A stretch of DNA of 4,189 bases from Enterobacteria phage SP. Position 1 is the first letter of the stretch, and the number at the start of each line of letters is the position of its first letter. The position numbers were made by a program, and so were the translations under genes. Below the pieces are notes generated by a model, which was not told the origin of the DNA, made no database searches, and saw only the letters and a list, made by a program, of their open reading frames with translations. The stretch lies in the sequence record JF719740.1. One strand, written 5' to 3'. Below, piece by piece: positions 11-4,128 of this stretch.

Positions 11-1363
11 ATGCCAACCCTTCCGAGAGGTCTTCGCTCCGGATCGAATGGCGAAGTCCTTAATGACTTCGAGGCGCTCTGGTTTCCAGAGCGCCATACC
101 GTAGATCTAAGCAATGGGACCTGCAAGCTCACTGGTTATATCACTAACCTGCCTGGCTACAGTAACATATTCCCTAATAGAGGAGTCACTGTTGCTCGTA
201 CGCCGTACAGAAGTACAGTGCCCGTTAACCATCTTGGTTACAGGCCAGTTACGACTGTTGAGTACATTCCCGACGGAACTTACGTGCGCCTCGATGGGCA
301 CGTGAAATTTGAAGGGGGCTTGGTTAATGGGTCAGTTGATCTCACGAATCTCGTGATCTCGTTAGCTGCTCAGGGTGGCTTCGATTACCAATCGGTAATC
401 GGACCTAGGTTCTCTGCGCGCTTCTCCGCGTTTAGCACCAAATATGGTGTCTTACTCGGAGAAGGGAGAGAGACTCTTAAGTATCTTCTCCTGCTGCTTC
501 GCAGAATGCGTGAAGGGTACCGCGCCGTAAGGCGTGGCGATCTCAAGCGTCTCAGGAATGTGATATGGACGTTCGAGCCGAGTACCGTAAAAGGTAAACG
601 AGCAAGGGCCGAGTTTTCACAGACCTATCGCGACAAGCTTACCGGAAACAAGGTCGAGGTTAGACCGAGTGAAGGTAAGTGGAATAGCAGTAGTGTGAGT
701 GACCTGTGGTTAGAGTTCCGTTATGGGCTGATGCCGTTATTCTACGACATACAGTCCGTTATGGAAGACTTCATGCGTGTTCATAAGAAGATCGCAAAAA
801 TTCAGCGGTTTTCAGCTGGACACGGTAAGCTCGAGACGGTTAGTTCGCGGTTTTACCCGGACGTCCATTTCGGCCTTGAGGTCACTGCAGTGTTACAGCG
901 GCGTCATCGTTGGGGTGTCATATACCAGGATACTGGTTCTTTTGCCACTTTCGACAATGGTCGTCTAGTCCCGGTGAAGGACTGGAAGACAGCGGCGTTT
1001 GCACTCCTTAATCCCGCCGAAGTTGCGTGGGAAGTTACCCCCTACAGCTTCGTGGTGGATTGGTTTGTAAATGTTGGTGATATGCTTGAGCAGATGGGCC
1101 AGCTTTATCGGCACGTCGATGTCGTTGACGGTTTCGACCGGAAAGACATAAAACTCAAATCCGTATCAGTACGCGTGCTAACGAACGACGTTGCGCATGT
1201 TGCTAGCTTTCAGCTGCGACAAGCAAGACTGTTGCATAGTTATTACTCGCGCGTGCATACCGTTGCGTTTCCGCAAATTTCACCACAGCTCGATACTGAG
1301 ATCCGTAGCGTTAAGCACGTAATCGATAGTATCGCCCTATTAACCCAACGCGTTAAGCGTTGA
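11..1363 (+). CDS. A2: Maturation (A2) protein; in Qbeta-like phages also the lysis effector that inhibits MurA
   Basis: 450-aa ORF, ATG at 11 and TGA at 1361..1363. First gene in the levivirus order. The N-terminus MPTLPRGLR..., internal motifs (LWLEFRYGLMPLFYDI, EVAWE.TPYSFVVDWF.NVGD, GQLY...D.VDGFDR.DI.LKS) and the C-terminal LLTQRVKR match my recollection of the Qbeta A2 protein. Confidence 0.92.
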   Translation: MPTLPRGLRSGSNGEVLNDFEALWFPERHTVDLSNGTCKLTGYITNLPGYSNIFPNRGVTVARTPYRSTVPVNHLGYRPVTTVEYIPDGTYVRLDGHVKFEGGLVNGSVDLTNLVISLAAQGGFDYQSVIGPRFSARFSAFSTKYGVLLGEGRETLKYLLLLLRRMREGYRAVRRGDLKRLRNVIWTFEPSTVKGKRARAEFSQTYRDKLTGNKVEVRPSEGKWNSSSVSDLWLEFRYGLMPLFYDIQSVMEDFMRVHKKIAKIQRFSAGHGKLETVSSRFYPDVHFGLEVTAVLQRRHRWGVIYQDTGSFATFDNGRLVPVKDWKTAAFALLNPAEVAWEVTPYSFVVDWFVNVGDMLEQMGQLYRHVDVVDGFDRKDIKLKSVSVRVLTNDVAHVASFQLRQARLLHSYYSRVHTVAFPQISPQLDTEIRSVKHVIDSIALLTQRVKR

Positions 1364-1382: not shown

Positions 1383-1781
1383 ATGGCAAAATTAAATCAG
1401 GTAACTCTTTCCGAAATCGGAAAGAATGGGGATCAGACTTTAACTCTTACACCGCGCGGGGTAAACCCGACGAACGGCGTGGCGTCGCTATCTGAAGCTG
1501 GAGCTGTTCCGGCATTAGAGAAGCGCGTAACTGTGTCAGTTGCGCAGCCATCTCGGAACCGTAAGAACTTTAAAGTTCAGATTAAACTCCAAAACCCGAC
1601 TGCATGCACGAAGGACGCATGTGACCCATCTGTGACGCGATCTGCTTTCGCAGACGTAACGCTGTCGTTCACGTCGTATTCTACCGACGAGGAACGTGCG
1701 CTGATTCGCACTGAATTGGCAGCTCTACTGGCGGATCCACTGATTGTCGATGCTATTGACAATCTGAACCCAGCCTACTGA
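1383..1781 (+). CDS. cp: Major coat (capsid) protein
   Basis: ATG at 1383 gives MAKLNQVTLSEIGKNGDQTL...NLNPAY (132 aa plus stop), ending at TGA 1779..1781. It is near-identical in pattern to the allolevivirus coat protein (PRGVNPTNGVASLS.AGAVPALEKRVTVSV.QPSRNRKN.KVQ, STDEERA..RTELAALLA.PL..DAID.LNPAY). The ORF track starts at an in-frame TTG at 1377, but the conserved N-terminus points to ATG 1383 as the real start. Confidence 0.95.
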   Translation: MAKLNQVTLSEIGKNGDQTLTLTPRGVNPTNGVASLSEAGAVPALEKRVTVSVAQPSRNRKNFKVQIKLQNPTACTKDACDPSVTRSAFADVTLSFTSYSTDEERALIRTELAALLADPLIVDAIDNLNPAY

Positions 1782-2378
1782 GCGGCGTTACTGGTAGCCT
1801 CGTCCGGCGGTGGGGATAATCCCTCCGATCCAGACGTCCCGGTTGTCCCAGACGTCAAACCGCCAGACGGTACGGGGCGCTATAAGTGCCCCTTCGCCTG
1901 TTACCGCCTCGGTAGTATTTACGAGGTCGGTAAGGACGGTTCTCCTGACATTTATGAAAGGGGAGACGAAGTCTCAGTCACTTTCGATTACGCTCTCGAG
2001 GATTTCCTTGGGAACACGAATTGGCGTAACTGGGATCAGCGATTATCAGATTATGATATAGCTAATCGTCGTCGTTGCCGTGGCAATGGGTACATCGACC
2101 TAGATGCAACCGCTATGCAGTCTGATGATTTCGTATTGTCAGGCCGCTACGCGGTGCGAAAGGTCAAGTTTCCCGGCGCCTTCGGCTCAATCAAGTATCT
2201 CTTGAACATTCAAGGTGATGCCTGGTTAGACTTATCCGAGGTAACAGCGTACCGTTCCTACGGAATGGTTATTGGTTTCTGGGCAGACTCTAAGAGCCCG
2301 CAGCTACCAACCGATTACACGCAGTTTAACAGTGCGAATTGCCCTGTGCAGACGGTGATAATCATACCCTCACTTTAA
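1383..2378 (+). CDS. A1: A1 read-through protein (coat fused to a C-terminal extension; minor capsid protein)
   Basis: In-frame continuation beyond the coat UGA. The extension begins AALVASSGGGDNPSDPDVPVVPDVKPPDGTGRYKCPF... and carries the conserved block LGNT.WR.WD.RLS......CRGNGYIDLDAT, then KPGAFG.I, then VIGFW, ending ...CPVQTVIIIPSL. This matches the Qbeta A1 read-through domain as I recall it. The ORF-track entry 2115..2378 is the Met-initiated tail of this same frame. Confidence 0.85.
1779..1781 (+). other. Leaky UGA stop codon of the coat gene (programmed read-through site)
   Basis: TGA at 1779..1781 is followed by G (UGA-G). The same frame stays open with no stop from 1782 to TAA at 2376..2378; I translated it codon by codon. 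Confidence 0.8.
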
Positions 2379-2393: not shown

Positions 2394-2413
2394 TAGCATG
2401 CCAAAGACAGCTA
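2394..2413 (+). promoter_or_regulatory. Translational operator hairpin (coat-protein binding site) enclosing the replicase start codon
   Basis: UAGC-A-UGCC AAA GACAGCUA. Pairs are 2394-2413, 2395-2412, 2396-2411, 2397-2410, 2399-2409, 2400-2408 and 2402-2406, with A2398 (the A of the AUG) bulged, one C-A mismatch (2401/2407) and a 3-nt loop AAA. The architecture is the same as the Qbeta operator (8-bp-type stem, bulged A, 3-nt loop) as I recall it. Confidence 0.6.
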
Positions 2414-4128
2414 GTCGCAGAAGAGAAATTACTCAACTATTGGGTAAGGTCGACATCAACTTCGAAGACGACATCCATATGTCTATTGCTAATGACCTCT
2501 TTGAGGCCTACGGCATCCCTAAACTTGATTCGGCGGAGGAGTGCATTAACACCGCATTCCCGAGCCTCGATCAAGGCGTTGACACGTTTCGTGTCGAATA
2601 CTTACGCGCCGAAATCTTATCAAAGTTTGATGGGCACCCTCTCGGTATTGATACCGAAGCGGCTGCATGGGAAAAGTTCCTAGCGGCCGAGGAGGGTTGT
2701 AGACAAACGAACGAACGACTATCGCTAGTTAAGTACCACGATAATTCCATTTTGTCGTGGGGCGAGCGTGTTATTCACACGGCCCGTCGAAAAATACTTA
2801 AACTAATCGGCGAGTCTGTACCGTTCGGGGATGTGGCGTTGCGCTGCCGTTTTTCTGGCGGCGCGACGACCTCGGTTAACCGTTTACACGGTCATCCGTC
2901 GTGGAAGCATGCCTGTCCGCAGGATGTTACCAAACGCGCATTCAAGTACCTGCAAGCCTTTAAGCGGGCCTGTGGTGACGTTGTAGATCTACGCGTCAAC
3001 GAGGTGCGCACTTCAAATAAAGCAGTCACTGTTCCAAAGAACAGTAAAACTGATCGCTGTATTGCTATCGAGCCCGGCTGGAATATGTTTTTCCAGTTAG
3101 GCGTCGGTGCAGTGCTACGCGATAGGTTGCGTTTATGGAAGATTGATCTTAATGACCAATCGACCAATCAACGCCTCGCGCGTGATGGGTCTCTGCTAAA
3201 TCATTTAGCTACCATAGACTTATCTGCAGCCAGCGATTCAATCAGCCTTAAGCTTGTTGAGTTGCTCATGCCCCCTGAATGGTATGACCTTCTAACGGAT
3301 CTCCGATCCGATGAAGGAATACTGCCTGACGGGCGAGTTGTGACCTATGAGAAAATATCCTCCATGGGTAATGGCTACACTTTCGAACTCGAGTCGCTTA
3401 TTTTTGCGGCTATCGCTCGAAGTGTGTGCGAGTTACTGGAAATTGACCAATCTACTGTTAGCGTGTACGGGGATGATATAATCATCGATACCCGTGCCGC
3501 AGCTCCATTAATGGATGTCTTTGAGTACGTCGGGTTCACTCCTAACAGAAAGAAAACGTTCTGCGATGGACCCTTCCGCGAATCGTGCGGTAAGCACTGG
3601 TTCCAAGGGGTAGATGTAACGCCCTTTTACATACGACGACCAATACGTTGCCTAGCCGATATGATACTTGTATTAAATAGTATCTATAGGTGGGGCACTG
3701 TTGATGGCGTATGGGATCCTAGAGCACTGACCGTTTACGAAAAGTATCTTAAACTGCTGCCAAGAAATTGGCGTCGCAATCGGATACCAGACGGCTACGG
3801 AGACGGAGCTCTCGTCGGATTGGCTACGACGAACCCGTTTGTAATAGTTAAGAATTATTCAAGACTATACCCGGTATTAGTTGAAGTCCAGAGGGACGTC
3901 AAGCGCAGCGAGGAGGGTAGTTATTTATATGCCCTCCTACGTGATCGCGAGACACGTTACAGTCCTTTCCTGCGTGACGCAGATAGGACTGGTTTTGATG
4001 AAACGCCGCTAGCTACTAGCCTTCGTCGCAAGACAGGTCGGTACAAAGTGGCGTGGATTCAGGACAGTGCCTTCATCCGGCCCCCGTATTTTATTACGGG
4101 AATTCCCGAGGTGAAGCTCGCAAGCTAG
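2398..4128 (+). CDS. rep: RNA-dependent RNA polymerase (replicase beta subunit)
   Basis: 576-aa ORF, ATG 2398 to TAG 4126..4128. The YGDD catalytic motif (VSVYGDDIIID) is encoded at 3466..3477. Conserved blocks match the Qbeta replicase from memory: CRFSGGATT, HPS.K, NKAVTVPKNSKTDRCIAIEPGWNMFFQLG, NHLATIDLSAASDSISL, VTYEKISSMGNGYTFELESLIFA, FRESCGKH, VDVTPFYIR, YRW...DGVWDPRA. Confidence 0.95.
   Translation: MPKTASRRREITQLLGKVDINFEDDIHMSIANDLFEAYGIPKLDSAEECINTAFPSLDQGVDTFRVEYLRAEILSKFDGHPLGIDTEAAAWEKFLAAEEGCRQTNERLSLVKYHDNSILSWGERVIHTARRKILKLIGESVPFGDVALRCRFSGGATTSVNRLHGHPSWKHACPQDVTKRAFKYLQAFKRACGDVVDLRVNEVRTSNKAVTVPKNSKTDRCIAIEPGWNMFFQLGVGAVLRDRLRLWKIDLNDQSTNQRLARDGSLLNHLATIDLSAASDSISLKLVELLMPPEWYDLLTDLRSDEGILPDGRVVTYEKISSMGNGYTFELESLIFAAIARSVCELLEIDQSTVSVYGDDIIIDTRAAAPLMDVFEYVGFTPNRKKTFCDGPFRESCGKHWFQGVDVTPFYIRRPIRCLADMILVLNSIYRWGTVDGVWDPRALTVYEKYLKLLPRNWRRNRIPDGYGDGALVGLATTNPFVIVKNYSRLYPVLVEVQRDVKRSEEGSYLYALLRDRETRYSPFLRDADRTGFDETPLATSLRRKTGRYKVAWIQDSAFIRPPYFITGIPEVKLAS

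Follow-up and report, generated by a model that had tools for sequence, protein, structure and literature searches.

The coat/A1 cistron of bacteriophage SP and the lineage-specific base that follows its UGA read-through codon

The window, by which we mean the whole stretch of DNA that was analysed (4,189 nucleotides), carries a maturation (A2) gene, a coat gene whose frame continues into the A1 extension, and a replicase gene. All of them lie on one strand, in the order known from the approximately 4.2 kb RNA genomes of Qubevirus, and a separate lysis gene is lacking. The names of the main open reading frames were transferred from the matching SP records, and the features relevant to the analysis are as follows.

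11-1363, plus strand: maturation (A2) ORF.
1383-1781, plus strand: coat ORF, the coat protein gene of SP, 132 codons and UGA (Pfam PF01819 Levi_coat, E = 2.9e-58; annotated at 1427-1825 in X07489 and GQ153935).
1779-1781, plus strand: leaky UGA, the read-through site of the coat gene, read from the sequence.
1782-1790, plus strand: 3' stop context GCG GCG UUA with G at +4 (position 1782), from the comparison of junctions.
1782-2378, plus strand: read-through extension, 198 sense codons and UAA (2376-2378), from the open frame, PF16814 and 3RLC.
1383-2378, plus strand: complete A1 cistron (coat plus A1 ORF), 331 residues, about 36 kDa, annotated in X07489 (1427-2422), GQ153935 and JF719739.
2398-4128, plus strand: replicase ORF.

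Megablast against the GenBank phage records matched the window over its full length to GQ153935.1 (Enterobacteria phage SP) with 99.8% identity. The other full-length SP matches were JF719739.1 (99.7%) and the original sequence, X07489 / NC_004301 (98.9%). The window is bacteriophage SP itself, a member of Qubevirus faecium and of group IV of the F-specific RNA coliphages. It lacks the first 44 and the last 43 nt of the 4276-nt SP genome, and positions in the window correspond to SP positions minus 44. Seven point differences from GQ153935 were detected over the 4189 nt (positions 472, 567, 1288, 1413, 2348, 2589 and 4003), none of them near the coat stop. In comparison to the GQ153935 SP 'ancestral' isolate, the differences at 567, 1413 and 4003 change the amino acids S186W in A2, K11E in the coat protein and A536T in the replicase, respectively. 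The remaining four (472, 1288, 2348 and 2589) are synonymous, and 2348 is the only one located within the extension. The seven differences suggest a laboratory-passaged or evolved SP clone.

The coat gene ends with the sequence AAC CCA GCC TAC TGA GCG GCG TTA CTG, in which the TGA occupies positions 1779-1781; the end given in the earlier note (CCA GCC UAC UGA GCG GCG) can be read directly in it. Translation of 1383-2378 bore out the further claim that the same frame stays open for 198 sense codons (1782-2375) up to the UAA at 2376. An in-frame stop within 1782-2375, which the earlier note had named as one of the observations that would overturn its reading, is absent in this sequence. A Levivirus-type coat gene that ends in a single UGA, a codon which all relatives have at this position, is thus followed directly by a stop-free extension whose length falls within the range of about 195-200 codons. 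Such an open frame is rarely obtained by chance, as only one of 20,000 mononucleotide shuffles of 1782-2375 was free of stops (5e-5), and the probability expected from the stop-trinucleotide frequency of the window was 1.4e-4. Over 1782-2375, each of the other five frames contains 8-14 stops. With Trp placed at the UGA, the predicted A1 protein has 331 residues and a mass of about 36.0-36.2 kDa, in agreement with the approximately 36 kDa expected previously. Its predicted junction peptide is ...DNLNPAY-X-AALLVASSGGGDNPSDPDVPVVPDVK, where X is the residue inserted at UGA (also given as ...NLNPAY-X-AALLVASSGGG...). Behind the terminal UAA (2376-2378), the A1 frame contains two further in-frame stops, at 2385 (UAA) and 2394 (UAG), which overlap the Shine-Dalgarno region of the replicase gene (AGGAG at 2388-2392, ATG at 2398).

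The extension consists of a Gly/Pro-rich linker followed by a globular read-through domain. Residues 23-196 matched the Pfam family PF16814 Read-through with an E-value of 1.5e-48 and 165.5 bits (cutoff 27), and the extension also matched the structures of the Qbeta A1 read-through domain, PDB 3RLC/3RLK (E = 2.5e-47 for 3RLC_A). An alignment of seven extensions (SP-, NL95-, FI-, Qbeta-, M11- and FrBurgundy-type) contains 60 invariant columns. The conserved motifs, which include GTGxYxCPF, LGNTNWRNWD and CRGNGYIDLDA, were thereby recovered as had been proposed from the single sequence. The extension is under purifying selection: in Nei-Gojobori comparisons with BR1, BR8, HB-P22, HB-P24, NL95 and FI, its dN/dS was 0.09-0.26 at pS values of 0.29-0.64, so that the coding selection anticipated for this region is borne out within group IV. 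The first in-frame ATG, GTG or TTG past the UGA lies at 2115, 111 codons into the extension, and all the motifs named above are located upstream of it. Since no in-frame start precedes 2115, only ribosomes that come from the coat frame can translate the first 111 conserved codons. Independent initiation of the extension was rejected for this reason, and a frameshift origin was rejected as well, because the extension lies in the coat frame and a shifted ribosome would meet a stop after 5 codons in the +1 frame and after 12 in the -1 frame. The conserved protein can therefore be made only by read-through of the UGA in the same frame.

As a gene, the A1 read-through cistron of SP is already known, its annotation going back to the original genome sequence (X07489). 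The GenBank note on the CDS at 1427-2422 of that record reads 'readthrough protein; readthrough stop codon', and this CDS corresponds exactly to 1383-2378 of the window. As the window is SP itself, there is nothing new in the gene. The coat and read-through CDS coordinates of X07489, NC_004301 and GQ153935 are identical to those found here after the 44-nt offset, and JF719739 and GQ153935 are annotated with the same CDS pair as X07489. Residues 31-198 of the extension are 100% identical to GQ153935, JF719738 and JF719739.

The mechanism, UGA read-through, is the textbook case from Qbeta, which is the experimentally established model for A1, whereas the A1 of SP is known here from its sequence and annotation. 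In Qbeta, Trp is misincorporated at the UGA, read-through amounts to a few per cent, and A1 is essential, being present in few copies per capsid and required for infectivity (PMC6071253, PMC13517186, PMC13114773, PMC8067240). The evidence for Qbeta read-through goes back to Weiner & Weber (1971/1973) and Hofstetter (1974), which are cited in these papers. The same papers also match what the earlier note had said about Qbeta, namely that A1 is required for infectivity and that tRNA-Trp decodes the UGA at low frequency.

We regard it as almost certain that the window holds the coat/A1 cistron of SP, in which a leaky UGA at the end of the coat gene is read through by a minority of ribosomes to give A1. 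Nothing was found in the sequence that speaks against this explanation. The majority of ribosomes translating the coat gene would stop at the UGA (1779-1781) with the help of release factor 2 (RF2) and yield the major coat protein of 132 residues. At the same codon, a near-cognate tRNA, which is tRNA-Trp in Qbeta, would compete with RF2, and a small fraction of the ribosomes would decode the UGA, remain in frame for 198 codons up to the UAA at 2376 and produce the minor capsid protein of about 36 kDa. The A1 protein would thus combine the coat domain, the Gly/Pro-rich linker and the globular read-through domain. By analogy with Qbeta, and in keeping with the SP annotation, tRNA-Trp would read the UGA at a frequency of a few per cent to give the extension, and the infectivity of SP would likewise depend on A1. 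No published read-through frequency, inserted residue or A1 copy number for SP or any other group IV phage was found in the literature searched.

The comparison with Qbeta (Qubevirus durum) extends over the whole region. Both phages have the gene order A2, coat/A1, replicase, and in both a Levi_coat gene ending in ...LNPAY-UGA is followed by an in-frame extension of 195-198 codons composed of a linker and a PF16814 domain. The extension proteins of SP and Qbeta are about 45% identical. The two differ in the last coat codon (UAC in SP, UAU in Qbeta), in the 3' context (UGA GCG GCG UUA in SP versus UGA ACA CUG CUC in Qbeta) and in the end of A1, which is a UAA in SP and the tandem UAG UAA in Qbeta and the group III phages. 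The closer relatives FI, NL95, BR1, BR8, HB-P22 and HB-P24 share the stop context UAC UGA GCR GCG UUA with SP, and among these faecium isolates the first Ala codon has A or G as its last base. Their extensions comprise 197-199 codons, all end in UAA, and are about 66% to 94% identical to that of the window. Judged by its sequence, the cistron belongs to the Qubevirus coat/A1 read-through family, as all the features of that family recognisable at this level are present.

In SP a G follows the stop (position 1782), whereas Qbeta (AB971354) and the other group III genomes checked all have an A there; the earlier note was right in giving an A for Qbeta. The comparison of stop contexts across allolevivirus genomes that it had suggested was based on a table of 19 junctions (18 GenBank Qubevirus genomes, including the window, and one IMG/VR contig). 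Further junctions came from five loci found by scanning IMG/VR and JGI contigs, two of which were the SP and FI reference genomes again, and from eight contigs recovered via a large protein database. A UGA was present at the homologous coat end in all 19 tabulated sequences and in all further metagenomic relatives examined, and the NPAY-UGA junction was kept in all relatives. The +4 base splits by lineage. The junction UAC UGA GCR GCG UUA was found in 13 of 13 faecium-type sequences, namely ten group IV genomes (SP in four records, BR1, BR8, HB-P22, HB-P24, NL95 and FI) and three metagenomic contigs (L024, L025/L026 and L016). The junction UAY UGA ACN was found in all Qbeta-type sequences examined, i.e., Qbeta, TW18, BR12, BZ1, FrBurgundy, FrMerlot, M11, MX1, the IMG/VR contigs and the contig L027. 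A third lineage, represented by assemblies only (L028-L031), reads UAC UGA ACU. Across these sequences, the +4 G is fixed in one of the three deep lineages and does not mark this genome in particular: being common to the whole Qubevirus faecium lineage, it is no peculiarity of the window. The difference has already been printed in a 2026 review, which gives UGAACU for Qbeta and UGAGCR for FI (PMC13517186).

The scan of contigs for read-through domains yielded four loci among viral contigs and two among metagenome contigs, and a search of 5.8 billion proteins returned only seven clusters. No C or U at +4 was seen at the six scanned loci or in the contigs of four of the seven clusters (P0001, P0003, P0004 and P0007), all of which were Qubevirus-like. 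One of the SP-like metagenomic contigs, L016 (MAVO01000006.1), has an extension that starts at 1879, is 92% identical to that of SP and follows the junction UAC UGA GCG GCG UUA. This extension is interrupted by an in-frame TAG after 106 codons, which may stem from an error in assembly or sequencing or mark a defective genome. The third lineage was recovered from public assemblies as L028 (Logan SRR33038103_87406, 4175 nt), L029, L030 (ENA ERZ28490142) and L031 (ERR2632531). It is approximately equidistant from SP and Qbeta, with 67-71% identity in the coat protein, 38-43% in the extension and 52-58% in the replicase. Its genomes are laid out as A2, coat-UGA-198-codon extension and replicase, with the context UAC UGA ACU CUC, and the junction UGA of L028 lies at 1746-1748. 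No GenBank phage record was more than 60% identical to the third-lineage extension, and this lineage may represent an undescribed species.

By the E. coli rules UGA-G is less leaky than UGA-A, and if the A1 requirement of SP equals that of Qbeta, a compensating feature that escaped detection might exist. A candidate for such a feature is RNA structure downstream of the stop, which would boost read-through as in many eukaryotic viruses and offset the less leaky stop. Known read-through stimulators lie about 8 nt past the stop. Neither a stem at this distance nor raised synonymous conservation was found at the SP site. Within eight codons on either side of the stop synonymous conservation was not raised: 9 of the 13 codons for conserved residues vary, in comparison to 71% overall. 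The gathering search gave no match to any Rfam family in the whole window, and no well-placed stimulatory RNA element was found downstream of the stop. The nearest conserved downstream stem pairs 1800-1811 with 1859-1870 in the linker-coding region and is formed by Gly-rich codons (GGN) pairing with Pro-rich codons (CCN). This stem would be the best argument for a boosting structure, as it is conserved in group IV with three pairs kept through changes on both sides, and a similar stem showed 6-7 double changes between the groups in a combined group III/IV alignment, although the alignment of the linker between the groups is uncertain. When metagenomic lineages were added for the analysis of covariation, the linker region gave no reliable alignment between lineages. 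However, the stem starts about 22 nt past the U of the UGA. By the established geometry of the bacterial mRNA channel, this is well beyond the mRNA entrance of a ribosome with the UGA in the A site and too far for the stem to touch it. Synonymous conservation is not raised from the stop to the stem either. Because the genomes of RNA phages are base-paired nearly throughout, a conserved stem would be expected here in any case, and this one probably belongs to the overall fold of the genome. For Qbeta read-through, a downstream structure is listed as 'ND' (not determined) in PMC13517186. The SP site is not structure-stimulated read-through of the eukaryotic-virus kind, and we consider it very improbable that a downstream structure offsets the UGA-G. 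The simplest explanation for the leak in the coat/A1 cistron would combine the immediate context of the UGA with the fact that UGA is an intrinsically weak stop in E. coli.

Folding was also considered as the force that holds the G at +4 in place. In this model, UGAGC (1779-1783) pairs with GCUC (1722-1725) and closes a hairpin domain containing the coat gene's 3' end. The pairs G1722-C1783, C1723-G1782, U1724-A1781 and C1725-G1780 are predicted in the single-sequence minimum free energy structure as well as in the consensus fold of group IV, all four are intact in seven of seven group IV sequences, and the 181-nt region around them (1720-1900) folds better than shuffled sequences (z = -3.7). 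As the four pairs are invariant, they gain no support from covariation, and the alignment neither supports nor contradicts them. The comparison with group III is less favourable: the +4 base does not covary with its predicted partner C1723, and the C retained in group III faces the +4 A as a C.A mismatch with no compensating change. Moreover, the two-group consensus fold assigns 1722-1727 to another, downstream partner. A helix of 4 bp is also weak, and since it cannot form when the UGA is in the ribosomal A site, it would have no bearing on read-through. Conservation of the G by folding is thus improbable. A separate hairpin of ten pairs (1742-1751 with 1755-1764) is located late in the coat gene (...LIVDAIDNL...), is conserved in groups III and IV and shows compensatory changes at three pairs.

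For read-through of the coat UGA, the consequence of a G at +4 may be approached through the context rules of termination in E. coli. Poole et al. are said to have ranked RF2 termination in 1995 as UGAU > UGAG > UGAA > UGAC, and Kopelowitz et al. reportedly ranked suppression in 1992 as A > G > C > U. From both rankings, somewhat less read-through would be predicted in SP than in Qbeta. According to Wei & Xia (PMC5289835), how efficiently E. coli terminates is a function of the +4 base, as the earlier note had also stated. The passage of their paper that cites Engelberg-Kulka 1981 describes UGA as especially liable to misreading by tRNA-Trp when it precedes an A. It is plausible that the read-through rate and the A1 copy number of SP differ from those of Qbeta.

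These data could be taken to mean that the +4 G is an adaptive tuning, in which group IV phages make less A1 than Qbeta, or an otherwise different amount, and in which that dose is optimal for them; at UGA-G, RF2 would terminate better and tRNA-Trp would misread worse than at UGA-A. The invariance of the base is consistent with such tuning, as G was kept in 13 of 13 faecium-type sequences despite pS values of up to 0.64 and A was kept in the third lineage and throughout the Qbeta-type sequences. The preference of tRNA-Trp misreading for a +4 A and the two rankings point in the same direction. However, the +4 base doubles as the first base of a codon, since the G opens the Ala codon with which the extension begins and the A of Qbeta-type phages opens a Thr codon, and its fixation may reflect the protein or neutral history. 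As only three deep lineages are involved, one or two substitutions account for the pattern, which is no case of repeated selection. Further differences lie at +5 to +9 and in the last codon of the coat gene (UAC versus UAU), so that the net effect is not readable from +4 alone. Adaptive tuning is in our opinion possible, at somewhat less than an even chance. The more specific proposal is that the UGA-G of Qubevirus faecium sets a read-through frequency, and hence an A1 dose per virion, at least 2-fold different from that of Qbeta, or, with less likelihood, that another near-cognate tRNA takes part and the junction residue is not only Trp. We hold this proposal to be rather unlikely.

With the cistron already known, the remaining question about SP is a quantitative one, namely the effect on A1 dosage of a +4 G versus a +4 A in the two cultured Qubevirus species. 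The answer is relevant to the display of peptides on A1 of the Qbeta type, in which the valency depends on the read-through rate. If the A1 dose or the junction residue does differ between the two phages, the SP/Qbeta pair would be a natural experiment on the control of minor capsid protein stoichiometry by the +4 context in bacteria.
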